Shown piece after piece: positions 2,051-38,807 of a stretch of DNA of 64,000 nt. How positions within the stretch are numbered: position 1 is the stretch's first letter; every line of letters begins with the position of its first letter. This DNA comes from Gammaproteobacteria bacterium. GTDB taxonomy: Bacteria; Pseudomonadota; Gammaproteobacteria; UBA4575. The translations under genes were made by a program, and so were the position numbers. The notes under the pieces were generated by a model. The model saw nothing but the letters and a program-made list of their open reading frames with translations. It was not told the origin of the DNA and searched no databases. The stretch lies in assembly GCA_026706595.1 (NCBI GenBank), contig JAPOYL010000011.1, positions 69,686-133,685 of the forward strand. The letters run 5' to 3'.

Positions 2051-3406
2051 ATGGCACTGGCACTGCAAGAACAGATGATGGAAGACGCTCACGAATGCAT
2101 TGTTGTCGGGCTTGGCAAGACCGGCCTGTCGGTAGCGCGTCACTTGCACAGACGAGGCATTTCCTTCGCCATGACGGACACCCGGGACCAGCCTCCCGGG
2201 CTCGCTGCTTTCAGGCGGGAATTTCCGCATCTGGACATCTGCACGGGAGCCTTGCCAGCGCAGTGGTTTGCAGCAGCCAACCAGATCGTTCTGAGTCCCG
2301 GCGTGGATACAAGAAATCCGGCGATTCAGGCGGCGATTGCCCGGGGTGCAGAGTGTCTTGGAGATGTTGAACTGTTTGCAAGCGCCAACCGGGTGCCGGT
2401 CGTGGCTGTGACCGGCTCGAATGGGAAAAGCACTGTGGTTCAGTTGGTGACCGAGATGGCCTCTGCCTGCGGCTTGTGCGCGTATGCAGGCGGGAATATC
2501 GGAACCCCGGTACTGGACCTGCTCGAAAAAGATGACGCGCAGCTGTTTGTACTGGAGTTGTCGAGCTTCCAGCTTGAGTCCACATGGTCCCTGAAACCCC
2601 GCATCGGTGCGGTGTTGAACGTGTCTGCCGATCACCTCGATCGTCACGACAGCCTGGAGCAGTATGCAGAAATCAAGGCGCGCATCTATGCGCATGCGAG
2701 CTGCAGTGTGGTCAACCGGGATGACGGGTTCGTGATGAAGATGAAGACCTCCGGGATGGTCACGGATTTTGGCCTGGGTCGTCCAGCAGACCGTGGCTTC
2801 GGCCTGTTGCAACGGGGCATGCACTCGTACCTGGCCCAGGGGGATCATTGCCTGTTGTCGACAGACAGCCTCAAGATGCAGGGTGAGGCGGGCATCCTGA
2901 ATGCACTGGCAGCGCTGGCGATAGGCCATGCCTTTGGTCTGTCAATGGAAAATATGTGCAGCGTCCTCAAGCGTTTCAAGGGATTGCCGCACCGCTTGTC
3001 CCAGGTTGGCGAGTCCCGCGGTGTGGCCTGGTTCAATGACTCAAAAGGTACCAATGTCGGTGCCTCTGTCATGTCACTGAGAAGCCTGGAAAGCAATGTC
3101 ATCCTGCTGGCCGGAGGGATTTTCAAGGGAGGCGATCTGGCGGGTTTGCGGTCTGCAGTAGCCCGTCATGCCAAGCACGCAATTTTGTTCGGGCAGGATT
3201 CAGATTTGCTGCGGCAGGCTCTGCGCGGGGCCGTGCAGATTCATTCTGCAGATACCATGCGCGATGCCGTGGTCCAGGCCCAGGCACTTTCTGTGGCCGG
3301 TGACAAGGTGTTGCTGTCCCCGGCATGTGCAAGTTTCGACATGTATGAGAACTATATCGCGCGGGGCAGGGATTTCGAGAGCTGTGTCAGGGAGCTGGTG
3401 CTGTGA
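2051..3406 (+). CDS. murD: UDP-N-acetylmuramoylalanine--D-glutamate ligase MurD
   Basis: VVGLGKTGLS nucleotide-binding N-terminus, GSNGKST P-loop and Mur ligase domains, in dcw position. Start could instead be the internal Met at about 2075. Confidence 0.9.
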   Translation: MALALQEQMMEDAHECIVVGLGKTGLSVARHLHRRGISFAMTDTRDQPPGLAAFRREFPHLDICTGALPAQWFAAANQIVLSPGVDTRNPAIQAAIARGAECLGDVELFASANRVPVVAVTGSNGKSTVVQLVTEMASACGLCAYAGGNIGTPVLDLLEKDDAQLFVLELSSFQLESTWSLKPRIGAVLNVSADHLDRHDSLEQYAEIKARIYAHASCSVVNRDDGFVMKMKTSGMVTDFGLGRPADRGFGLLQRGMHSYLAQGDHCLLSTDSLKMQGEAGILNALAALAIGHAFGLSMENMCSVLKRFKGLPHRLSQVGESRGVAWFNDSKGTNVGASVMSLRSLESNVILLAGGIFKGGDLAGLRSAVARHAKHAILFGQDSDLLRQALRGAVQIHSADTMRDAVVQAQALSVAGDKVLLSPACASFDMYENYIARGRDFESCVRELVL

Positions 3407-9758: not shown

Positions 9759-10990
9759 GCCGCAAGACAGAAAGAGACATCCTCGTCGGACTGGATATCG
9801 GTACTTCCAAGGTCACCGCGATTGTGGGCGAGGTGAATGACGAGGACCAGCTGGAGGTGATCGGGCTTGGCACCAGCCCGTCCCGGGGACTGAAAAAAAG
9901 TGTCGTTGTCAATATCGAGTCCACCGTGCAATCCATCCAGCGTGCGGTTGAGGAAGCCGAGTTGATGGCAGGGTGCCAGATACATTCCGTATACACCGGG
10001 ATTGCCGGCAGCCACATCCGCAGCATGAATTCCCATGGCATTGTCGGCATCAAGGACCGGGAAGTCTCCAAGGGGGATGTGGAGCGCGTGATCGATGCCG
10101 CCCGGGCCGTGGCCATTCCCGCAGACCAGAGGGTGCTGCAGGTGATGCCGCAGGAGTTTGTGATTGACCAGCAGGAGGGCATTCGAGAGCCGATCGGCAT
10201 GTCCGGTGTACGCCTCGAGGCAAAAGTCCACCTGGTCACAGGTGCCGTCAGTGTGGCGCAGAACATCATCAAGTGTATTCATCGCTGCGGACTGGAGGTG
10301 GACGATATCATCCTGGAGCAGCTGGCCTCGAGCAGTGCGGTGCTTATGGAAGATGAGAAAGAGCTGGGAATCTGCCTTGTCGATATCGGTGGAGGCACCA
10401 CGGATGTTGCCGTATTCACCGACGGTGCGATCAAGCACACTGCCGTGATCCCGATTGCAGGCACCCAGGTCACCAATGACATCGCGGTGGCCATGCGAAC
10501 CCCGACCCAGCATGCCGAAGATATCAAGATCAGGTATGCCTGTGCACTGCGGCAACTCGCGAATCCCGACGACACCATCGATGTCCCCAGTGCCGGAGAT
10601 CGAGAATCAAGGCAGCTTTCACGCCAGACGCTGGCTGAAATTGTAGAGCCGCGCTATGAGGAGTTGCTTTCGCTGGTGCTGGCTGAACTGGAGCGCAGCG
10701 GTTTCAAGGATCTGGTTGCGGCAGGCGTGGTACTGACCGGTGGCAGTTCAAGGATGGAAGGTGTGGTGGAGCTGGCGGAGGAGATTTTCCACATGCCCGT
10801 GCGTTTGGGTACAGCGCAGAATGTGACGGGCCTGGTGGATGTTGTAAGAAATCCGATTTATGCCACGGGGGTGGGTCTGCTTTTGTTCGGTTTCCAGAAC
10901 CAGAAGCTGGAGCAGAACGCCTTGTCGGGCGAGTCGGTCGTGGCAGGAGCGTTCAATAGGGTAAGGAGTTGGTTTCAAGGGAGTTTTTAA
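9755..10990 (+). CDS. ftsA: cell division protein FtsA
   Basis: Actin-like ATPase: ILVGLDIGTSKV phosphate-1 motif and DIGGGTTD. ATGA overlap with the ftsQ stop. Confidence 0.93.
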   Translation: MSRKTERDILVGLDIGTSKVTAIVGEVNDEDQLEVIGLGTSPSRGLKKSVVVNIESTVQSIQRAVEEAELMAGCQIHSVYTGIAGSHIRSMNSHGIVGIKDREVSKGDVERVIDAARAVAIPADQRVLQVMPQEFVIDQQEGIREPIGMSGVRLEAKVHLVTGAVSVAQNIIKCIHRCGLEVDDIILEQLASSSAVLMEDEKELGICLVDIGGGTTDVAVFTDGAIKHTAVIPIAGTQVTNDIAVAMRTPTQHAEDIKIRYACALRQLANPDDTIDVPSAGDRESRQLSRQTLAEIVEPRYEELLSLVLAELERSGFKDLVAAGVVLTGGSSRMEGVVELAEEIFHMPVRLGTAQNVTGLVDVVRNPIYATGVGLLLFGFQNQKLEQNALSGESVVAGAFNRVRSWFQGSF

Positions 10991-11031
10991 AATCTCATGC
11001 GCTAAGCATGAAAATCTAGAGGAGAAAGGTC

Positions 11032-12183
11032 ATGTTTGAACTGGTAGATACATATGGTGAGAATGCCGTCATCAAGGTGATCGGCGTGGGCGGAGGCGGT
11101 GGAAATGCCGTCATGCACATGGCGCAGTCCAACATTGACGGTGTGGATTTTATCTGTGCGAACACCGATTCGCAGGCGCTGAAAAGCACCAATGTCAAGA
11201 CGGTACTGCAGCTCGGGAACAATATTACCCAGGGACTGGGAGCCGGGGCCAACCCGGTAGTGGGCCGCGAGGCTGCACTTGAAGACCAGGACCGTATCCG
11301 TGAGTCCATCGCGGGAGCGGACATGCTGTTCATCACCGCCGGCATGGGTGGCGGAACCGGTACCGGTGCGGCGCCTGTGGTGGCAGAAATCGCCGAGGAA
11401 CTGGGTGTTTTGACGGTTGCCGTGGTAACCAAGCCGTTTCCCTTCGAGGGTGACAAGCGTATGAAGATCGCCAATGCCGGTATCGAGGAGCTCGTCAAGC
11501 ATGTTGACTCGCTGATCACGATACCCAATGAAAAGCTGCTGGCGGTCCTGGGCCGGGAAACCAACCTGCTGGATGCGTTCAAATCGGCCAACGACGTCCT
11601 GCGCGGTGCCGTGCAGGGAATCGCCGAACTGATCACCTGCCCGGGACTGATCAACGTGGATTTCGCCGATGTGCGCACGGTGATGTCGGAGATGGGAATG
11701 GCCATGATGGGCTCAGGCACCTCAACGGGTGCAGAGCGGGCACGCGAAGCTTCGGAAGCCGCGATCTCCAGTCCGTTGCTCGAGGACGTCAATATCGCGG
11801 GTGCCAAGGGTATTCTCGTGAATGTGACCGCAAGCGCCGGACTTTCCATTGGCGAATTCGACGAAATTGGCAGTCATATCAAGGGCTTGGCCTCGGATGA
11901 CGCTACGGTGGTCGTCGGCACGGTGATCGACGAGTCCATGCAGGACAGCCTGCGCGTGACGCTGGTGGCGACCGGCATCGGGTCAAAAACCACGCCGGCT
12001 CCGGCCAAACCCAAGATAACGCTGGTGGAGACCCCGGCCAAGAAGCCGGTCAAGGTCATGGATGAAGAGGTGAACAGCGCCAAGGGGCATGCCAAGCCTG
12101 GACCTGAAGTTGCCGCGAAAAACCAGGGGTACGATCTGGATTATCTGGATATTCCTACATTTTTGCGCACGCAAGCCGACTGA
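11032..12183 (+). CDS. ftsZ: cell division GTPase FtsZ
   Basis: Tubulin signature GGGTGTG, the NTD motif, and the conserved C-terminal peptide [22 protein letters not shown] upstream. Confidence 0.97.
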
Positions 12184-30284: not shown

Positions 30285-30552
30285 CAAGGCGGTAGTGCCT
30301 CTCAGGAACTGGAAAACGGGGTGTCCGGCGGTTGAGCGGGTCGGTTTTGGGAGCCTGCAGAAGTCAGGCTGGCCCAGGGACGACAGCGGTGGCAAAACCG
30401 AGTGCTACAGGTGATTTTATGGTGTGCAAATAGGTAAACGATTGCGTACTGTTGGCCGATCTGGTAAGGCACCCCAAAAATAAACATAAACATTTGAATT
30501 TAATACACTTTTTAAGGTGATGCCTGCACCTTTCATGCAAACATCGGAGTAT

Positions 30553-30581
30553 TTGCAGTTACAGAATCATGCTTGTATAAT
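30553..30581 (+). promoter_or_regulatory. candidate sigma70 promoter with extended -10, for the alkB-like gene
   Basis: TTGCAG at 30553-58, a 17-nt spacer, then TGnTATAAT at 30574-81, in the AT-rich region after clpB. A 5'UTR of about 130 nt leads to the GGAGG RBS at 30699. Confidence 0.5.
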
Positions 30582-30714
30582 CGAGCGTATCTAATGCCCC
30601 CGAATGGGCGAGTGTCCGTGTGGATATACAGGTCATGAGAGAGGGCAACGGAAAAAGATATGCTAAACAATTAAATTTGTAGTTAACCGAGCGAATGCTG
30701 GAGGTGCATATACA

Positions 30715-31869
30715 ATGATGAAACTTATGATTAACGCAAGGTACTGGTTCGCCCCGATCCTGATCATCGTCACGATGTTCGGAGTACTGATGGGCGGCAT
30801 GTTCGTATGGGTCGGACTGCTGCTGTTGGGCGTTGGTATCGTGATCGACACAGCCATGAAGTGGCAAAGTTCCGGTGCAGGCTTTGACCGGAGCGGAGAA
30901 ACGATGGGTGTGCCCTGGCTACAGAACAGCGTGATGTACGTCATGTTGGGAGTATTCGTACTCCTGCAACTGGCGCTCGCATGGCGTATCTACCAGTACG
31001 TCAATGGTGTCCCGCTGAGTGCCGGGTTCGACCATGTCATGTTTGGATTCCTGCCTTATATGAATGGAATCTCCGGACTTGACCTGATCGGTGCCACGAT
31101 ATCCTCAGGCATCTTTGCCGGTATTGGTATTATTTATGGACATGAACTGAGCCATACGAAGGGATTTGCCTTTGCCATTTCCCGCTCAATGATGGCGCTG
31201 AGTGGCAAAGCTCACTTCAGCTATGCACATGTCTATAACCACCATCTGGAACTGGCACACGAAGATGATCCTGCTACGTCACCGCGTGGAAGAACCATCT
31301 ACCGACACTATCCATTGGCCGGAATCGGGCAGTCCCGCTTCCTGTACAGAATGGAGAAGCAACGTCTGGAGCGTCTGGGCAAATCCTGGTTCACATGGGA
31401 AAATCGCTGGCTGCGTGGCTATGCCATGAGCCTGCCGACCCTGTTCCTGTTCTGGTTTGCCGGCGGCTGGATTGGTATTGCCTGCCTGTCAGTTGTATGG
31501 CTGATCTCAAACTTTGAGCTCGAAGCCCTCAACTACATGGAGCATTACGGCTTGATTCGTGAGAAGGGACAGCCGATTGACTATCGTCATTCATGGGACA
31601 ACGCAACAGCGTTCACCAGCTGGTTCTTCATCGAGATTGGCCGTCAGGCAGATCACCATGACCGTGGTGAAACCCACTTCTGGGAGCTGGATGACGTAGG
31701 TGCTCCTAACACCGGATGGGGTTACTTCACCTTGTTTGCCATCGCGCTCATACCGCCGCTTTACCACATGTATATGAAGAAGGAACTGGCAAAGTGGGAC
31801 AGAGAGCGTGCCTCAGAGGGCGAGCGTGCGATTGCTGATCGCCTCAACCGTCAGGTTGGTTACGCTTAA
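30715..31869 (+). CDS. AlkB-family integral-membrane non-heme di-iron hydroxylase (alkane 1-monooxygenase-like / fatty acid desaturase superfamily)
   Basis: His boxes in AlkB order: HELSHTK, HVYNHH followed by DPATSPRGRT (AlkB has EHNKGHH...DPATSRMGE), NYMEHYGL, and RQADHH (the first His of box 3 is replaced by Gln). N-terminal TM helices. Strong RBS. Confidence 0.8.
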   Translation: MMKLMINARYWFAPILIIVTMFGVLMGGMFVWVGLLLLGVGIVIDTAMKWQSSGAGFDRSGETMGVPWLQNSVMYVMLGVFVLLQLALAWRIYQYVNGVPLSAGFDHVMFGFLPYMNGISGLDLIGATISSGIFAGIGIIYGHELSHTKGFAFAISRSMMALSGKAHFSYAHVYNHHLELAHEDDPATSPRGRTIYRHYPLAGIGQSRFLYRMEKQRLERLGKSWFTWENRWLRGYAMSLPTLFLFWFAGGWIGIACLSVVWLISNFELEALNYMEHYGLIREKGQPIDYRHSWDNATAFTSWFFIEIGRQADHHDRGETHFWELDDVGAPNTGWGYFTLFAIALIPPLYHMYMKKELAKWDRERASEGERAIADRLNRQVGYA

Positions 31870-31892
31870 GCTCTGATTTCGGAGAACGCAAA

Positions 31893-31943
31893 TTTTTAGC
31901 ATAGTCATGTGCCCGGGCTTCGTCCCGGGCACATGCGCTAAAA
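31893..31943. terminator. bidirectional rho-independent terminator-like hairpin
   Basis: TTTTT, then ATGTGCCCGGG cttcgt CCCGGGCACAT (11-bp GC-rich stem), then AAAAA. Located directly after the alkB-like stop. Confidence 0.55.
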
Positions 31944-32378
31944 AGAAGCGTTGAATGACGGGGGAAAGCCGGGAACAAAAACAAGGAGAAGATCCCGGCG
32001 AATAACACCTGCGGTCGATAAGAAGAAACTGGACCACGGTGTCGATGAACGACAGGCTGATCTAAACGTTCTGTATGCGAGTCGCACTGTGGAAAGTCCA
32101 GGCAGGAAAGAATAACAATTTGTAATTATCGGTCTTGGGGCCGACACGGCAAGAATCAAGACGGTAAACTTCAATCCTGTACCCAGTGGGCACAGGAGCA
32201 GAGGGGCTCGGGGTCTGGAACCCTGGCATTTACAGATATCAGGAGGACGCTATAAACGTTATGTGCGTGTAGCCGCAGGGACGGCTTATTCTATCCTGAC
32301 TGTTTTTACTACCCTGGGTGACCGGCTTAGGTAACCCCGGACATAACAAACAACTCCAAACATAACGAGGTATAAACA

Positions 32379-33059
32379 ATGTTAGGTGATCATTTGGCGG
32401 ACAAAATGAAATTTTATGGGAACCCCTCATGCCTGCGCAGCGCGATGTGCATGTTCACCGCTGCCGAGAAGGGCGTGGACTTAGAGGGCCACTTTGTCGA
32501 TCCCAATGGAACGGGTGCGGCTGACGTTCAGGCGCTTGCGCCGCATGGCTTGTTGCCTGTACTGAAGGACGTCGATTTCGTCGTTTGCGGACAACAAGGC
32601 ATCATGTCCTATCTGGACGACAAGGGCTTTGGTCCATCCCTGATTCCCCGTAATGGCGTCGTGCGTGCAATCCACTACATGTGGAATCAGCTCGCCACCG
32701 ATATTGCACTGGACGCAGTTGCTGGATTGATGTCCGGTACTGGGGATGCTGCAGCCGCATCGGGGTGCTTCGATCTTCTGAATTCGCATCTGGCATCCAA
32801 GAGCAATCCTGCGCTGCGCGGTGATTTCATTTGTGGAGCCTTCAGTCTCGCAGATATCCACTGGGCTGCCCTGGCACAAGGCTGCATGCTTGCCGACAGC
32901 AGCGATGTGGTGGAGTCCAGACCGGCCGTTGCAAAATGGTGGGGCCTGGTCAAGTCGCATCCCAGCACGAGCAAGGAAAACATCCGCGGCTATGATGTGC
33001 TTCCGACCAAGACGGACATCAGCGGCAACAGCCTGCGTGGTGTCACGATTAATGTCTAG
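32379..33059 (+). CDS. glutathione S-transferase-fold protein, paralog 1
   Basis: Thioredoxin-like N-domain (KFYGNPSC...GLLPVLKDVDFVV.GQQGIMSYL) and a helical C-domain (GAFSLADIHW, KWW). RBS GAGG. Confidence 0.7.
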   Translation: MLGDHLADKMKFYGNPSCLRSAMCMFTAAEKGVDLEGHFVDPNGTGAADVQALAPHGLLPVLKDVDFVVCGQQGIMSYLDDKGFGPSLIPRNGVVRAIHYMWNQLATDIALDAVAGLMSGTGDAAAASGCFDLLNSHLASKSNPALRGDFICGAFSLADIHWAALAQGCMLADSSDVVESRPAVAKWWGLVKSHPSTSKENIRGYDVLPTKTDISGNSLRGVTINV

Positions 33060-33354
33060 AAGGGCTGGGCCTCTTACTATTCATTAATCACGGGTTTCCT
33101 TGAAAGCGGACCTGCAGGGCGGCATCGTCCGGTCAGGTCCCGGGGAAACACGAGCAAGTTATTATGGATTGACCTTGGTGGGAATGCCGGGGTTGGTCGT
33201 GAAGCGACGATGCCTTGAGTCCCTTGGCAGAGGGACCCGGGTGGATGGCGCTTCAAGAAAAGAATTTACGGGCCACAGGGTTTTCAGATTACTCTGGGGG
33301 ACTCCGGTTGCATTATAAATACTCGAATTTAATCTGAGTCAGGAGGTGTGACTA

Positions 33355-33561
33355 ATGTATTCATTCAGAGCAATCGTTGTGATGCTGATATTTTCTGCGG
33401 CCGTCTACTACGGCATGGGTATGCTGGGTCTCACTGCAGCCCATTCCGATCCCTTGATGGCGCTTGCCGGAGCAGTGGTCCTGCTGGTGGCTTTGGTCAT
33501 CAACGTATGGATCTATCTCAAGCTCGCTGGCGAGCATCCGTTTAAATGGTTCAAGGAGTAG
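33355..33561 (+). CDS. small two-TM membrane protein (68 aa), unknown function
   Basis: Strong RBS AGGAGGTG 7 nt upstream. Two predicted TM helices. Followed by a strong hairpin. Confidence 0.55.
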   Translation: MYSFRAIVVMLIFSAAVYYGMGMLGLTAAHSDPLMALAGAVVLLVALVINVWIYLKLAGEHPFKWFKE

Positions 33562-33627
33562 AATCCTCCTACTAAAGGAAGCCATTCGTAGCGCGCAAGC
33601 GCGATCCTAATAAAAAGTGTCAGGCAA

Positions 33628-33666
33628 CTGGACCTGGAGCAAACGAATGTTTGCTCCAGGTCCAGC
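33628..33666 (+). terminator. strong stem-loop (17-bp perfect inverted repeat), probable terminator/attenuator
   Basis: CTGGACCTGGAGCAAAC gaatg GTTTGCTCCAGGTCCAG. No canonical U-tract follows. Confidence 0.45.
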
Positions 33667-33739
33667 CAGCCGTTCTGTAAAAAACCGGACAAAAGGGCGC
33701 CTACAGCTCGAGTCTGTCATAGCAGCTACATAACTGACA

Positions 33740-34408
33740 ATGGGACTATTTTCACGCAAAAAGAAACCTGCCGAGAAGGTTCGTCTACTCGGTCATCCTG
33801 GACATGCCGATACCTGCAAGAGCCTGTACCTGGGTGCTGAAAAAGGGGTTCAGCTGGATCCCGAACTCATTGACATCCGAAGCGAACAGTATCCAGATGA
33901 GACACTGCGGTCAGTGTCACCTTTTGGCAAGCTTCCTTGCCTGGTTGAGGGAGAGGTGGTCACCTCCGGTATTGCGGCCGTATTGCCTTACCTGGATGTG
34001 CGTGGCGGCGGGCAACCGCTGACACCCCGCAAGGCACAGCATTTGGGCACCCAGAATTACTGGATCGAGGTGGGTGCACAGCAGGTGCAGCCAAGGATCG
34101 AGGCCCTGGTGGATGGCCAGCCTGCAGAGGAAGCCAAAGATGGATTGCAAAAGATCTTTGATGGCATGGATGCACATCTGCAAGGCAAGGAGTGCATAGT
34201 TGGCGCATTTTCCTTTGCAGATGTCCATTGGGTGGCCTACCTGCACCTGTTGCATGTAGCAGGCCAGAACAGCCTCATCGACGAGCGGCCCAACCTGAAA
34301 GCCTGGTTCGAGCATATGAAGGTCCGCAAAGGCAGTCACGGCATTGCCTATACGGCTATGCCGTCGGCAGCGGACATTCAGCGAGGCGGATTTGCGAACG
34401 CCGCCTGA
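33740..34408 (+). CDS. glutathione S-transferase-fold protein, paralog 2
   Basis: GKLPCLVEGEVV.TSGIAAVLPYL, GAFSFADVHW, KAWFEHM. Same architecture as paralogs 1 and 3. Confidence 0.65.
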   Translation: MGLFSRKKKPAEKVRLLGHPGHADTCKSLYLGAEKGVQLDPELIDIRSEQYPDETLRSVSPFGKLPCLVEGEVVTSGIAAVLPYLDVRGGGQPLTPRKAQHLGTQNYWIEVGAQQVQPRIEALVDGQPAEEAKDGLQKIFDGMDAHLQGKECIVGAFSFADVHWVAYLHLLHVAGQNSLIDERPNLKAWFEHMKVRKGSHGIAYTAMPSAADIQRGGFANAA

Positions 34409-34454
34409 ACGGCAGAGCACGTTGGTCTGACACCCCTTTGGAGCCACAACGAAT

Positions 34455-35237
34455 ATGAGTGATTTGTTTGAGTTCGGCCGTGCAGCGGACCCGACGGCGA
34501 GCAGCCAGTACGGGGCAAGCGGCGATATGAAAAAAACCCAGTACGTGCTGCAGCTGCTGGGATTCCCGGGGGATGCGGGAACGCTGAAATGCTTGGTCAC
34601 GGCGGTGGAAGTGGGCATGGAGACTGATTGCGGGATTCTCGATATCACGGCAGGTGCCCATGAGTCGGGTGACTACCTGCAGGTCTCGCCACTAGGCTTG
34701 GTGCCTGCACTCAAGGAAGCCGATTACATCGTCACCGGAGAGTTGGGTATCATGAGCTATATCGAGGCCCGGGGGCTGGGCAAGCGCCTGCCACCCAAGA
34801 ATGCAGGCCTGCTGGCTGCCCAGAACTACTGGGGCGATCTTGCCTGCAGCGAGGCCAAACCGCATGTGGAGTCGATCGTGCAGCAGCGCATTTACGCACC
34901 GATGCAGGGCAAAGACTCTGATGGTGTGGCGGTGGACCAAGCCCGTTCGGGGCTTTCCGCGGTGCTGGATGCCCTGGACGGACAGCTTGCCGGCAAGGAA
35001 TTCATTATCGGAGACTATTCATTCGCTGATATCCACTGGACAGCTTACGTTCATCTCCTGTATGAGGCGGGAGAAGGGGATTTGGTTGATTCCCGCGCCA
35101 ATATCAAGGCCTGGTTTGACCGTATCCGGACACACAAGAGCTATTGCGGGCAGGACATCGTGGCATATGACCTGCTTCCGAAGCTTGAAGGCATAAAAAA
35201 CAAGCAGTTGCACTCGGTGGAAGTGTCAGACTATTGA
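34455..35237 (+). CDS. glutathione S-transferase-fold protein, paralog 3 (with N-terminal ~25-aa extension)
   Basis: LGLVPALKEADYIV.GELGIMSYI, GDYSFADIHW, KAWFDRI. RBS GGAG. Confidence 0.7.
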   Translation: MSDLFEFGRAADPTASSQYGASGDMKKTQYVLQLLGFPGDAGTLKCLVTAVEVGMETDCGILDITAGAHESGDYLQVSPLGLVPALKEADYIVTGELGIMSYIEARGLGKRLPPKNAGLLAAQNYWGDLACSEAKPHVESIVQQRIYAPMQGKDSDGVAVDQARSGLSAVLDALDGQLAGKEFIIGDYSFADIHWTAYVHLLYEAGEGDLVDSRANIKAWFDRIRTHKSYCGQDIVAYDLLPKLEGIKNKQLHSVEVSDY

Positions 35238-35270
35238 TTATCGAGTACCGGTGGGGAAGAATGACGGATC

Positions 35271-35711
35271 ATGTGGGGATCATCTAAAAAACAGGACCGT
35301 CAGATCAAGGGTGTTACCGGTGCCATTACACCTTTTGTCACGGATACGCTGGGCAGGCTGGACCCGGAAGATCTCGAGGAAGCCTCGATCAAGCGCAAGT
35401 ATGCGATTTACTACATCTACGGTGCCGTTTTATACTTGGCCGAGTATGATGACCTGGGCAAGGACGTCAAGGCGGTACTGGTCACCAATATCCTGGGCGA
35501 GCAAATGAGCGTCGATCAGGCGGCGATTGACAAACTGCCGGTGACCGAGGACCATGCAGATGCTGTGAGGGAAACGCAGTTCATGATTGAGGGGGCCAGT
35601 GCACTGCGCAACTGGCTGACCACAGGGGAACGCGAAAAGAACGCCGCGTACCTGAAGGAGTTGCTGGATAACCCGGACTGTATAACCGGGGAGAGTGAAA
35701 CAGAGCACTGA
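35271..35711 (+). CDS. hypothetical acidic soluble protein (146 aa)
   Basis: ORF sits 33 bp after GST paralog 3 and is probably co-transcribed. No motif recognised. Confidence 0.45.
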   Translation: MWGSSKKQDRQIKGVTGAITPFVTDTLGRLDPEDLEEASIKRKYAIYYIYGAVLYLAEYDDLGKDVKAVLVTNILGEQMSVDQAAIDKLPVTEDHADAVRETQFMIEGASALRNWLTTGEREKNAAYLKELLDNPDCITGESETEH

Positions 35712-35808
35712 ATCGATTGAATTTTAGGCAGGCCTGGGTATTCGCATAAATGATATTCAGGCGTTATGATAAGTTTAGCGGCAAAAAACAATTAAAAAGG
35801 AGGCGTGT

Positions 35809-35916
35809 ATGTCTGATGGTGGAGGAAATGATGCCATGGTATTCGTGGTCGCAATGGTCTTCGGCGTTGCTGTGATCGTACTCACGTTATACCTGGCTGG
35901 CTTAATTCCTATGTAA
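35809..35916 (+). CDS. small hydrophobic peptide (35 aa, single TM), not in ORF track
   Basis: atg at 35809 preceded by AAAAGGAGG at a 7-nt spacing. Translation MSDGGGNDAMVFVVAMVFGVAVIVLTLYLAGLIPM, then TAA. Confidence 0.5.
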   Translation: MSDGGGNDAMVFVVAMVFGVAVIVLTLYLAGLIPM

Positions 35917-36605
35917 AAAATGGTTCGGGAGCAGAGGGGCTCCTGATCCGTATTCAATTTGCGAAAGGGGGGTTGCAACTTATCCCAGGCTCGTCAAATC
36001 GGCAGACCTGCCGATTTGACCCGTGGGGGCGCAGCCCGTCTCCCTTTCCCGCCCTATAAATCTTTCAGGTTCTTACAGAAAATCTGCCCGGGATTCAGGT
36101 ACAAATACCCGAGACTTTTCCTTTATGCCTGCATATCTGATCATGTTTTGATCACTTTAGAGGGATGATGGGCTGAAGTCCTGGATCAGGGAGTAAAAAA
36201 ACATCGATTCGTGAGGTACGCCTTCAGGTCATGATTCAGTCTACGGGGTACCATTTGCCTTGATTTCACGGTAATATTCGTTACACTTATATGACAAGTA
36301 CGCAGCACCTATAGTGATCCGACCGAAAGGGGCAGGAATAGGCGGCTGTAGAGACATAAGAATCAGGCTGCTCAAAGCCGCGATAGAGAGGAAAAAGGGG
36401 GATCTGGATTGACACTGACAGCAATATGCAATGCCAGCCTCAATTCAATCTGTACAACTTACTTCTGTCAAAACCAAATCGTCAGCCACCTGTAAATCAT
36501 ACGACTAGCGGCTGACATGAGAATAAGAAATTCAAACAAAATTTTAGTTAGCAAAATTCATCGTAACCAATCAAACAAGACTACTTATAACCGGGAGGGT
36601 AACCA

Positions 36606-38132
36606 ATGAGAGAAGTTTTTAATCGGTGGTTAGCAATTGCGTTGCTGGCATCGCTGGCCATTTCAGGGACTGCCTATGCAGGCCCGTACGGCTACGATCT
36701 GCACAACGTGCTGGCTCCACGTTCAGCGGGTATGGCGGGTACCAGCATTGCCAAGCCTCTGGATAACGTGTCGGCAATCTTTGGTAACCCTGCCGCATTG
36801 ACGGACTGGACGGGAACGGAGTTCACGTTTGGTGCCACTTACTACAAGCCCGAAGTCAGACTGGATCACTCGGGGGCCTTCAATCTTCCGACCTATGCAG
36901 GTTCGGTACCTGATGCTGTCTTTGGTGAATTTGCGGTACCGGGGCATTCTAAAGAAGGAGGTACTGCCATCGTATGCGGTAACCCAAACGCGTTCTGTAT
37001 TCCCGATGCAGCATTTGACGACGCGGTCAACGGCAACGAGGGCTACATCGTACCGCAGGTGGGTGTGACACAGGATCTGCGGCCGCTCGGCTTGCCCGCT
37101 GTACTGGGCGCGGGACTGACCGCTGTTTCTGGTATCGGTGTGGAGTTTCGTCATGTTGAAGAAACCCTGGGACTGGGCGCGGAGTTCATCGTCCTGGGCG
37201 CGAACTTCTCCCTTGGCTGGGAGCTGAATGAGCGGGTATCTATTGGTGGTGCAGCTACGATAACGTATGCCTACTTGGACCTTGGCTTAGCAGCGACTTC
37301 AGGCGTAACTCATGACACCGGCATGCGTGGAACACTAGGCTTGACTTACGAAGATATCTTGCCAGGTACCCGGTTGGGCGTGTTCTACATGACGGAACTA
37401 CAGCATGTGTTTGACGACATTATTGCCGTACCGCCTGATGATTATGCGCCAGCGCAAGGTGACGCATTCGAAGGATATGGTGACGATGCACCGGTTCGCT
37501 ACGCCTCCATTCCTATTGAGGAGCCGCGTACGATTGGTATCGGCATCTCCAATGAGACCTTCATGGACGGCAACCTGCTGGTTGCAGCCGATGTGATGTG
37601 GAAGAACTGGGAAGAGGCCGACTTCTGGGGCGATGTCTACGAGGACCAGATGGTCTACAGCATCGGTGCCCAGATGAAGATGGGCAACTGGCGTTTCCGT
37701 GCCGGGTATGGCTATGCCGATGATCCGACGGATCGAGATGCACAGGGCGTCAAGGGACTACCCTATGTCTGCTCTTCAGCAACGAGATGTAATGTAATCC
37801 CTGTAGGCAGTGGGAATGACAGCATATTGCATCTTGGGCAATCAGTCCTTGAGTACCTGCAGGCTTCACAGACCGAGGTGATCTATCGCCACCGCGCCAC
37901 GCTAGGTGTGGGGTACATGGGCTTCCTGGCTCCGTTCCTGAACATTGACGGCCATGTAGGCGTGCAGTTCAAGGAGCGCAACCACTACAGTGCGGGTCCT
38001 GTCCAGACAGCAGGCGTTGTTAGTGCTAATGGGGTAGACCTAGGTCCTTTTGATGGATCAGCAACAACCACGGCCGCAGATGTCTGGTCTTGGCATGCAG
38101 GCTTTGCTCTGACCTGGAACTTCCAGTACTGA
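36606..38132 (+). CDS. FadL/TodX-family outer-membrane hydrophobic-compound transporter
   Basis: Signal peptide ending AYA. N-terminal hatch motif IFGNPAAL (the NPA motif of FadL/TodX). Alternating beta-strand pattern. C-terminal aromatic WNFQY. Confidence 0.75.
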   Translation: MREVFNRWLAIALLASLAISGTAYAGPYGYDLHNVLAPRSAGMAGTSIAKPLDNVSAIFGNPAALTDWTGTEFTFGATYYKPEVRLDHSGAFNLPTYAGSVPDAVFGEFAVPGHSKEGGTAIVCGNPNAFCIPDAAFDDAVNGNEGYIVPQVGVTQDLRPLGLPAVLGAGLTAVSGIGVEFRHVEETLGLGAEFIVLGANFSLGWELNERVSIGGAATITYAYLDLGLAATSGVTHDTGMRGTLGLTYEDILPGTRLGVFYMTELQHVFDDIIAVPPDDYAPAQGDAFEGYGDDAPVRYASIPIEEPRTIGIGISNETFMDGNLLVAADVMWKNWEEADFWGDVYEDQMVYSIGAQMKMGNWRFRAGYGYADDPTDRDAQGVKGLPYVCSSATRCNVIPVGSGNDSILHLGQSVLEYLQASQTEVIYRHRATLGVGYMGFLAPFLNIDGHVGVQFKERNHYSAGPVQTAGVVSANGVDLGPFDGSATTTAADVWSWHAGFALTWNFQY

Positions 38133-38152
38133 TTAAAGTCAGTAGTCTTTTG

Positions 38153-38187
38153 GAAAAAAGGGGTGGCATATGCCACCCCTTTTTTTG
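38153..38187. terminator. rho-independent terminator (bidirectional)
   Basis: AAAAAA, then GGGGTGGCATATGCCACCCC (a perfect 20-nt palindromic hairpin), then TTTTTTTG. Confidence 0.85.
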
Positions 38188-38327
38188 TTTCTGACCATAT
38201 TCCCAAAAGTTCCATTTGAGAATACAGGGACTAGTCCCTATCAGAGCCTTGTACAGTCCAAATTATTGGAATTTCAAATTTGATCATAGACATGTCATAT
38301 CAGCTTTTTCTAACAACACCCGTTTCA

Positions 38328-38374: not shown

Positions 38375-38426
38375 TTGTGCCTTGCTCCGCAGGACACACA
38401 TAACAATTGTTGGAGGTTTTATAACG

Positions 38427-38807
38427 ATGGATAAGAAACGTCGTGATTTTAATAAGCTGATGGTGGCTGCAGCAGCTGGATTGATGGCTGGAAGCCAGAC
38501 GGTTGCCTTGGCGGGTCACCCGGGCCATGAAGGTTGTCCGAAGCATAGCTGTAAAGGCCAGAATGAATGCAAGGGCAAGGGTGGCTGCAAGTCAAGCGAC
38601 AACGGTTGCGCAGGCAAGAACTCATGCAAGGGCAAGGGTGGTTGTGATCCAGCCCACACGTATGAGAAGCATGCCTGTAAGGGCCAGAATGCCTGCAAAT
38701 GCCAGGGTGGCTGCAAGTCAGGTGACAACGGCTGTGCCGGTAAAAATTCATGTAAAGGCAAGGGTGGCTGCCAGCTTCCAGTTGACCCCAGCCACATGGA
38801 AGGATAA
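38427..38807 (+). CDS. Cys-rich exported precursor-like protein (bufferin/HvfA-like, DUF2282-type), 126 aa, 13 Cys
   Basis: GGAGG RBS. Twin-arginine signal KRRDFNKLMVAAAAGLMAGSQTVALA. Two 34-aa repeats, each with 6 Cys in a CKGQNxCKGKGGCKSxDNGCAGKNSCKGKGGC pattern. Immediately upstream of a DUF692/DUF2063 pair. Confidence 0.75.
   Translation: MDKKRRDFNKLMVAAAAGLMAGSQTVALAGHPGHEGCPKHSCKGQNECKGKGGCKSSDNGCAGKNSCKGKGGCDPAHTYEKHACKGQNACKCQGGCKSGDNGCAGKNSCKGKGGCQLPVDPSHMEG
38544..38771 (+). repeat. tandem intragenic repeat (2 units of ~102 nt, period ~126 nt) encoding the 6-Cys modules
   Basis: Near-identical nucleotide blocks (tgcaagggcaagggtggctgcaagtca...). They explain the overlapping repetitive ORF-track translations at 38503-38835 on both strands. 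Confidence 0.8.

Follow-up and report, generated by a model that had tools for sequence, protein, structure and literature searches.

Here, we ask what an AlkB-like oxygenase might do when its neighbours are three proteins of the glutathione transferase (GST) fold, small peptides and an outer-membrane channel of the FadL/TodX family, and no electron carrier is encoded beside it. This combination occupies positions 30285-38190, between clpB and a bufferin operon, of a 64,000-nucleotide stretch (hereafter the window) from a gammaproteobacterium of the UBA4575 lineage (assembly GCA_026706595.1, contig JAPOYL010000011.1, positions 69,686 to 133,685). At this locus we observed recognisable folds, conservation of the genes across lineages, their co-occurrence with each other and with electron-transfer genes, a split of the gene set over two chromosomal sites, and purifying selection. 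On balance, we think it probable that the region is the hydroxylase half of a conserved module, a three-component AlkB/XylM-type monooxygenase which would act on an imported small hydrophobic substrate and would be served by electron donors in trans.

An earlier interpretation made from the letters of this stretch without database searches (the sequence-only reading) had reported that the region carries no regulator or electron carrier. This stood for the window, since no reductase, electron carrier or regulator was found in the region or in the whole 64 kb. A scan for rubredoxin-like CxxC...CxxC patterns gave no candidate in the region, and there was no rubredoxin motif in the window. A tblastn search of the window with the reductase, Fer4_19 ferredoxin, globin, regulator and NorQ/D-like proteins gave nothing below E = 0.03, and the spacers are not recognisable pseudogenes. 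We also noted a weak match of 47% over 21 aa (E = 0.08) between window positions 32143-32211 (- strand), in the spacer between the AlkB-like gene and GST1, and NorD-like von Willebrand factor A (VWA) proteins of loci L014 and L017 (L numbers denote the loci compared). This similarity is probably due to chance, yet the spacers gave no other sign of a gene remnant.

However, the statement did not hold for the chromosome. On the same 1,848,999-bp chromosome (OZ242174.1, uncultured gammaproteobacterium), a Fer4_19 ferredoxin gene and a reductase gene (P0391) lie at locus L087, about 200 kb away. P0391 (L087 10001-11098) was recovered with the reductase of locus L013 as the query, as a 90%-identity cluster with one member, and is 61% identical to that in-module reductase. 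The gene order at L087 is rimP-nusA-infB-rbfA-truB-rpsO-pnp-msrB, a gap of about 300 bp, Fer4_19, a gap of 470 bp, the reductase, a dksA-like gene, xseA, guaB and guaA. The same pnp-msrB...dksA-xseA site is occupied by the whole module in L021, L023, L033 and L085-type genomes, in the order AlkB-like, globin, Fer4_19, GST1, reductase and p68 (a 68-aa membrane protein). The two loci are thus complementary, the window holding the AlkB-like gene, GST1 and p68, and L087 holding Fer4_19 and the reductase. A second sponge metagenome-assembled genome (MAG; L086) has the same msrB-Fer4_19-reductase-dksA arrangement, and no remnants of the alkB-like gene, GST1 or p68 were found in the gaps of the Fer4_19/reductase locus. 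The module is split in this genome, not orphaned, and reciprocal loss after duplication would be the simplest history.

To describe the module in other lineages, the open reading frames of 80 loci were clustered, and the components were counted by tblastn in the 72 loci with enough downstream sequence. GST1 follows the oxygenase gene in 39 of the 72, and p68 is present in every one of these 39. The reductase accompanies them at 28 loci, the 59-aa Fer4_19 ferredoxin at 26, and a truncated globin and a FadL-type channel at 17 each. Partners were identified by Pfam domains (Fer2 + FAD_binding_6 + NAD_binding_1, Fer4_19, Bac_globin, and CbbQ/NorQ + VWA). The reductase, of about 361 aa, has the first of these domain sets, which makes it XylA-type, and is annotated as a "xylene monooxygenase electron transfer component" in some sources. 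GST2, GST3 and p146 (a 146-aa protein) are found in the sister clade L013-L019 as well. Ahead of the module, several of these loci encode an acyl-CoA-dehydrogenase-like protein, a histidine kinase with a PAS domain and a LuxR-type response regulator. A NorD/CbbO-like VWA protein is encoded near the module, and some loci add a NorQ/CbbQ-like ATPase. We found that the oxygenase gene normally sits with an electron-transfer chain, and in several lineages also with a regulator. Its hosts are marine methylotrophs, free-living sulfur oxidisers, and sponge and probably lucinid symbionts. Taken together, these gene neighbourhoods point to a widely conserved and so far uncharacterised bacterial gene module, and the sequence-only reading was right that the combination is not a described operon type.

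Two observations concern the surroundings of the module. The NorQ/CbbQ-type AAA ATPase and the NorD/CbbO-like VWA protein adjoin it at L074 6728-9713 (- strand) and at L013 16355-18361 (- strand), so that the pair stands next to the module in two different arrangements, Methylophaga-type genomes included. It might serve the di-iron enzyme as a chaperone that inserts the metal; a role as a Rubisco activase is unlikely because the pair also flanks the module in Methylophaga-type loci. In addition, four genes follow the FadL gene in Methylophaga-type modules (L074 15417-18742), encoding a second truncated globin whose N-terminus is hydrophobic and signal-like, a SCO4226-like protein, a nitronate monooxygenase-family protein, and a protein of about 400 aa with a weak S-adenosylmethionine-methyltransferase match.

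The oxygenase itself was compared with solved structures. Its only phmmer matches among these were the two AlkB structures (3e-28 for 8sbb; 2e-25 for the other). The AlphaFold2 (AF2) model (predicted local distance difference test, pLDDT, 84) significantly matched only AlkB 8f6t and 8sbb in Foldseek, with template-modelling (TM) scores of 0.71-0.77, and no solved desaturase structure was among the Foldseek matches. The conserved motifs are HELSH (143/147), HVYNHH (172/176/177), NYMEHYGL (H277) and RQADHH (Q311, H314, H315). NYMEHYGL, at residues 273-280, aligns with NYIEHYGL of the solved AlkBs, and NYxEHYG is an AlkB signature. Eight of the nine iron-ligand histidines of the AlkB set are present; the first histidine of box 3 is replaced by Gln311 (RQADHH vs RHSDHH), and this QxxHH third box is invariant across the 49 aligned family members. 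Identity to plasmid-borne AlkB and XylM is 31-35% over the C-terminal 63%. We therefore describe the protein as an AlkB-fold, AlkB/XylM-like oxygenase of a divergent subfamily, and not as a strict member of the AlkB family.

Relatives of the oxygenase were found at 253 or more places in one-genome-per-species collections. Those with 67-85% identity come from Ca. Porisulfidus (sponge-associated sulfur oxidisers), Ca. Oxydemutatoraceae, Thiotrichales, Thiogranum, Cocleimonas, Thiothrix and Methylophaga. The protein is 99% identical across L006-L010, in comparison with 92-97% for ClpB in those genomes that allowed the comparison, and its conservation equals or exceeds that of a housekeeping chaperone. 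Its synonymous divergence (dS) from L007-L010 is 0.07-0.17, three to five times below that of the neighbours clpB, gst1-3 and bufB (0.33-0.66), whereas against L011 it is not reduced relative to them. The low dS could be due to recent interspecies allele exchange or to constraint on synonymous sites.

Could it be an ordinary n-alkane hydroxylase, in which ferredoxin and reductase replace rubredoxin and the GSTs are bystanders? The closest structures and the best plasmid matches are indeed alkane 1-monooxygenases (31-35% identity), some sources annotate family members as such, and Methylophaga has been linked to hydrocarbon enrichments. Moreover, active fusions of AlkB with ferredoxin and ferredoxin reductase have been described (PMC8918992). 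Against this, the module loci examined had no gene for an alcohol or aldehyde dehydrogenase, an acyl-CoA synthetase or a rubredoxin, the window is free of rubredoxin motifs, every member has the QxxHH third box, and GST1 and p68 are strictly linked to the oxygenase gene. The identity of 67-70% across orders is unusually high, and other genomes have a pair of copies with identical coding sequences; this conservation and the identical copies suggest a core physiological role rather than opportunistic catabolism. We therefore regard n-alkane hydroxylation as improbable.

The duplicated copies deserve a description of their own. Nine of the sampled genomes carry two AlkB-like copies at different chromosomal sites with 99.4-100% DNA identity (L020/L021, L024/L034, L033/L042, L039/L040, L030/L031, L036/L041, L048/L050, L057/L063 and L055/L064; at about 9990-11141 in each locus). 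In most pairs the identity spans from about 10 nt before the start codon to about the stop codon, and in two pairs 70-90 nt beyond. One copy heads the GST1/reductase module; the neighbours of the other are fabA and a gene for a MerR regulator that has a B12-binding domain. The near-identity looks like gene conversion in progress, comparable to that of amoA/pmoA or tufA/tufB. Furthermore, Ca. Porisulfidus-type loci (L072 14157-20342; also L049, L068, L070 and L073) encode a protein of about 830 aa in which a GlnE-like nucleotidyltransferase domain is joined to a second FA_desaturase/AlkB-like domain, a distant one with 25-27% identity. A YcaO protein of 777 aa and a 383-aa protein without an assigned family come next.

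The partners of the oxygenase were then considered. The AF2 model of GST1 (pLDDT 90) and Foldseek confirmed a thioredoxin-like N-terminal domain and a helical C-terminal domain, with TM scores near 0.7 and about 20% identity to GSTs of the phi, lambda, zeta and omega classes. Its family is small (306 hits) and includes unnamed gammaproteobacterial MAGs, Thiogranum and Ca. Thiodiazotropha. Cys18, at the usual catalytic position, is mostly conserved, the K23-C24 pair is conserved and the cis-proline P60 is invariant; the Glu-Ser glutathione-binding position is Gln-Gly and not conserved. GST2 and GST3 share 26-35% identity with GST1 and with one another (26% for GST2 vs GST1), have His and Asp at the catalytic position, respectively, and are confined to the L005-L019 clade; GST3 retains the K-C pair of helix 1. 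In this clade GST3 is always followed by p146, which is 32-41% identical in L013-L019 and gave no significant match in Pfam, NCBIfam or PDB. p68 shows 33-69% identity in distant loci and a nonsynonymous divergence (dN) of 0.006-0.013. The 35-aa p35 was called as a gene in L001 and L002, and has dN = 0 with dS of 0.04-0.17 against four relatives; it is probably a real gene. At its N-terminus the FadL/TodX protein has a hydrophobic stretch that resembles a signal sequence; it carries the NPA hatch motif that the sequence-only reading had pointed out (N61-P62-A63), and its best PDB match is CymD (6z34). Its gene evolves fastest in the region (dS about 1, dN about 0.1). dN/dS is below about 0.2 for every gene of the region (about 0.1-0.2 for GST2), indicating that all are under purifying selection and none is decaying. 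Across lineages, GST1 is an obligate partner of the AlkB-like gene, and p68 is the third invariant member of a core trio, a candidate membrane subunit or assembly factor.

These partners bear on the proposal of the sequence-only reading that the region serves the uptake of an alkene or other hydrocarbon, epoxidation by the AlkB-like enzyme, and glutathione-dependent opening of the epoxide by the GSTs, as in isoprene and styrene metabolism. The AlkB fold was confirmed, a FadL-type channel is present, GST1 has a genuine GST fold with a conserved cysteine at the catalytic position, and the strict linkage of the oxygenase to GST1 would fit a reactive product that needs thiol chemistry. The conjugate dehydrogenase and the CoA-transferase, however, are absent from the window, from the 39 module loci and from the conserved neighbours of the 80 loci. 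Moreover, the Glu-Ser motif of GST1 is not conserved, sulfur-oxidising symbionts with genomes of 1.6-2 Mb carry the module, and the sole expression evidence that we found points to dimethylsulfide (DMS). We consider alkene epoxidation unlikely.

The expression evidence comes from a transcriptome and proteome study of Methylophaga thiooxydans grown on DMS vs methanol (PMC6548844). In these data (PMC6548844), MDMS009_226, a "Fatty acid desaturase domain protein", reached 1359 on DMS vs 10 on methanol, MDMS009_906, a "Membrane protein, aromatic hydrocarbon degradation", 1469 vs 18, MDMS009_61, an "Oxidoreductase, NAD-binding domain", 618 vs 12, and the cyanoglobin MDMS009_199, 601 vs 21. These four genes, 29- to 136-fold up on DMS, are among the most induced, and their annotations correspond to four components of the Methylophaga-type modules (L069, L074 and L084). 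A further DMS-induced protein (MDMS009_82, 9.3-fold) is 73% identical to the product of the SCO4226-like gene inside the L074 module. M. sulfidovorans, also a DMS degrader, has an oxygenase with 70% identity. AlkB enzymes perform sulfoxidation and heteroatom demethylation, so that DMS is a chemically plausible substrate. According to the authors, Methylophaga lacks dmoA and ddhA and its primary DMS enzyme is unidentified (PMC6548844), and a preprint of December 2025 still marks the initiating enzyme of Methylophaga in this way. We found no relevant paper in a literature search for links of AlkB with DMS, methanethiol, truncated haemoglobin or sponge symbionts.

DMS or a related volatile organosulfur compound is thus the leading, although unproven, substrate candidate; within the reading as a three-component monooxygenase, the assignment to DMS itself is tentative and less likely than not. 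Equally tentatively, the trio together with Fer4_19 and the XylA-like reductase might be the missing enzyme that starts DMS breakdown in Methylophaga, a membrane di-iron enzyme unrelated to DmoA. If this is true, the same DMS-initiating role would extend to many marine sulfur-oxidising bacteria and animal symbionts. Oxidation of DMS or another volatile by this module would close a known gap in the cycling of marine sulfur, and would provide a gene marker that current surveys miss.

The same induction can be read in favour of a membrane-lipid enzyme, which would hydroxylate or desaturate acyl chains or another lipid under sulfide, thiol or oxidative stress. The oxygenase belongs to the Pfam FA_desaturase superfamily, and a QxxHH third box is also typical of front-end desaturases. 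Other genomes carry a second, GST-less copy beside fabA and the MerR/B12-type regulator, conservation is very high, small symbiont genomes retain the gene, and the M. thiooxydans gene was induced in H2O2-generating growth on DMS (PMC6548844). On the other hand, the fold search matched AlkB only and no solved desaturase, and the NYxEHYG motif is present. In addition, a hydrophobic-substrate channel is linked in 17 of the 39 loci, and the M. thiooxydans gene so annotated was co-induced 80-fold; a linked and co-induced uptake channel is hard to explain with an internal lipid as the substrate. A lipid-modifying function is, in our judgement, doubtful.

For the three-component monooxygenase, we propose the following electron path, roles of GST1 and p68, and substrate route. 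NADH would reduce the XylA-like [2Fe-2S]-FNR reductase, and the electrons would reach the inner-membrane AlkB-like enzyme, probably via the 59-aa Fer4_19 ferredoxin. The AlkB-like enzyme would then use O2 to oxidise a small hydrophobic substrate which enters across the outer membrane through the FadL/TodX-type channel; if this were DMS, hydroxylation of a methyl group would yield methanethiol and formaldehyde. GST1 and p68, the obligate partners, would act either as subunits or assembly factors or in a thiol-dependent step on a reactive product. In this sponge-symbiont-like lineage, the AlkB-like gene, GST1 and p68, joined by the clade-specific GST2, GST3, p146 and FadL genes, lie between clpB and the bufferin operon, with Fer4_19 and the reductase remaining about 200 kb off at the ancestral site.

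Several points weigh against this mechanism. Glutamine in place of a ligand histidine in box 3 means that the chemistry may differ from that of AlkB. It is synteny that connects the distant Fer4_19 and reductase with this oxygenase, and this window yielded no globin, regulator or NorQ/D-like genes of the kind seen in other modules. The GST-fold proteins may be either thiol-dependent catalysts or structural partners. As for DMS, the presumed orthology of MDMS009_226, _906, _61 and _199 to the module genes draws on matching annotations and one sequence-verified neighbour, and stress from methanethiol, sulfide or H2O2 might account for the induction. The authors of the expression study read the induced "desaturase" as serving lipid maintenance (PMC6548844), and Boden et al., as cited there, are reported to have detected no DMS monooxygenase activity in extracts.

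We further considered whether the region is a recently acquired genomic island, in which case its content would say little on the core physiology of the host. The GC content is 0.529 in the region and 0.574 in the window, with 0.599 and 0.558 in the left and right flanks, so that the lower GC claimed by the sequence-only reading is real if weak. The long, AT-richer gaps it had listed are real as well, with 430 bp (GC 0.47), 509 bp (0.50) and 689 bp (0.46). Yet the GC at third codon positions (GC3) of the region's genes, 0.58-0.68, is in no case more than about 1.3 standard deviations below the window mean (0.667, standard deviation 0.068), and the dip is mostly due to low coding density (66% vs 89%) and long spacers (GC 0.37-0.53). 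Scans for island boundaries revealed neither tRNA genes nor flanking direct repeats, there are no integrase genes, and a search of 72,556 plasmids returned no oxygenase homolog above 35% identity.

Synteny in relatives, proposed at the outset as a check on strain specificity, gave one of the outcomes that the sequence-only reading had itself named as refuting a strain-specific island. The gene set from the AlkB-like gene to the FadL gene is present in all eight species-level genomes of the immediate clade (L005-L012) and adjoins clpB and the bufferin operon in most of them; in L009 the bufferin genes are absent downstream. The core genes are conserved across many gammaproteobacterial lineages, the AlkB-like tree places these genomes in one clade, neighbouring genes diverge in step, and the complementary gene pair is kept at the ancestral site. 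In favour of an island, the gene set occupies different chromosomal sites in different lineages, and a 5.5 kb insertion is found at the clpB junction in L010. This insertion (L010 3769-9200) separates the AlkB-like gene from clpB; its products are an ATPase of the AAA/DUF4143 type and a protein of 1383 aa without Pfam match. Overall, recent acquisition is largely refuted and very improbable, and the description as an accessory, strain-specific island has to be given up.

The gene inventory and coordinates of the sequence-only reading were borne out, and its family assignments (AlkB-type, GST-fold and FadL/TodX) hold. The features are collected in Table 1.

Table 1. Genes and local sequence elements of the region between clpB and the bufferin operon (window coordinates).
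Feature	Position	Strand	Basis or remark
clpB	ends 30284	+	
Sigma-70-like promoter candidate, TTTGCA-18-TATAAT	30552..30581	+	10/12 positions match; 5' of AlkB-like gene
AlkB-like oxygenase, 384 aa	30715..31869	+	Pfam FA_desaturase 1.8e-24, 87 bits; no NCBIfam model matched
Hairpin, 12-bp perfect arms, 6-nt loop	31906..31935	+	37 nt past AlkB-like stop codon
GST1, GST-fold, 226 aa	32379..33059	+	GST domains (Pfam); AF2 and Foldseek fold
p68, 68 aa, two transmembrane helices	33355..33561	+	hydrophobic helices, conservation
Hairpin, 17-bp perfect arms, 4-nt loop	33628..33665	+	3' of p68
GST2, GST-fold paralog, 222 aa	33740..34408	+	GST_C 30.2 bits vs cut-off 20.7
GST3, GST-fold paralog, 260 aa	34455..35237	+	above GST_C cut-off
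p146, soluble, 146 aa, no recognisable family	35271..35711	+	
p35, 35 aa, single transmembrane helix	35809..35916	+	hydrophobic core residues 9-27
Hairpin, 13-bp arms	35993..36020	+	after p35
FadL/TodX/CymD-family channel, 508 aa	36606..38132	+	Toluene_X 38.5 bits vs cut-off 29.7
Perfect 32-nt palindrome AAAAAAGGGGTGGCAT/ATGCCACCCCTTTTTT, A6...T6	38154..38185	.	after FadL gene, before bufferin operon

The promoter candidate falls in the conserved part of an otherwise divergent spacer, as positions 30525-30714 share 80-96% nt identity with five relatives vs 39-57% for 30285-30524. The hairpin behind the AlkB-like gene is a possible terminator or attenuator, and the palindrome behind the FadL gene looks like a bidirectional intrinsic terminator that would close the module. 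Of the strong bidirectional terminators announced by the sequence-only reading, the hairpins and the palindrome thus exist, but a consensus terminator scan found 6 sites vs 8.2 +/- 2.8 in shuffled sequence and hence no excess. An Rfam scan of the whole window gave no match within the region. The vertebrate 3' untranslated region stem-loop MAT2A_D scored 35.1 bits at window positions 2290-2330 (gathering score 32), and such a match in a bacterial genome is almost certainly due to chance.

Downstream of the FadL gene lies the bufferin operon (BufA2-like, BufB and an HvfC-like protein), followed by proS. The bufferin precursor (38382-38807) contains two tandem Cys-rich repeats, 38540-38644 and 38666-38770, which are 82% identical, and matches the BufA2 model in two stretches with 50 bits, below the cut-off of 60. 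A tie of the module to this BufA/B/C operon was rejected because the putative bidirectional terminator lies between them and the association is absent outside this clade.

Two lessons extend beyond this locus: not every AlkB-annotated gene of a marine metagenome encodes an alkane hydroxylase, and an apparent "orphan" oxygenase can have its electron donors elsewhere on the chromosome. Among known systems, AlkB of the P. putida GPo1 type (8F6T and 8SBB, Fontimonas thermophila) shares with the oxygenase its fold (TM 0.71-0.77), histidine boxes 1 and 2, NYxEHYG, the last two histidines of box 3 and comparable hydrophobic segments. It differs in box 3, whose first histidine is glutamine in 49 of 49 aligned members of the AlkB-like family, in sequence (22-35% identity), and in its partners, the module having a Fd-FNR-type partner in place of rubredoxin and rubredoxin reductase, and no alk-type regulator or downstream alk genes. 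Ferredoxin-ferredoxin reductase-AlkB fusions (Nie 2014; Williams and Austin 2021/2022) demonstrate that AlkB-family enzymes can be driven without rubredoxin (PMC8918992). In contrast to these fusions, the module encodes its components separately, has a Fer4_19-type ferredoxin, and adds GST1 and p68.

The isoprene iso (IsoI/IsoJ) and styrene StyI/StyJ pathways share the linkage of an oxygenase gene to GST-fold genes. Such glutathione-epoxide pathways use soluble di-iron or flavin oxygenases and include genes for a conjugate dehydrogenase and a CoA-transferase; at the loci examined here the latter two are absent, and GST1 is about 20% identical to any solved GST. DmoA of Hyphomicrobium would share only the proposed reaction, DMS to methanethiol and formaldehyde, if the DMS reading is right; it is a soluble flavin-dependent enzyme of unrelated fold.

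The XylM/XylA/XylN system of the TOL upper operon and CymAa/CymAb/CymD offer the better comparison, and the rubredoxin and AlkS-type regulator expected by the sequence-only reading were the wrong one, as the relatives of the module show an XylMA/XylN- and CymAaAb/CymD-like architecture. The oxygenase is only about 31% identical to XylM over 63% of the protein, has the QxxHH third box, and has no adjacent alcohol or aldehyde dehydrogenase gene in the window region or the module loci examined. Further, the module adds an obligate GST-fold partner, the 68-aa two-helix partner, the Fer4_19 ferredoxin and truncated globins, and in this genome its reductase is 200 kb away. Shared with XylM/XylA and CymAa/CymAb are the AlkB-family integral-membrane di-iron hydroxylase and the single-polypeptide [2Fe-2S]-ferredoxin/FNR reductase, in the operon at 28 of 39 module loci and in trans here; shared with XylN and CymD is the FadL-family outer-membrane channel. 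The p-cymene operon, to which CymD belongs, pairs an AlkB-family hydroxylase with an XylA-type reductase. Overall, the architecture resembles the XylMA/XylN and CymAaAb/CymD type rather than the AlkB-rubredoxin type, in line with CymD as the closest solved relative of the FadL protein.

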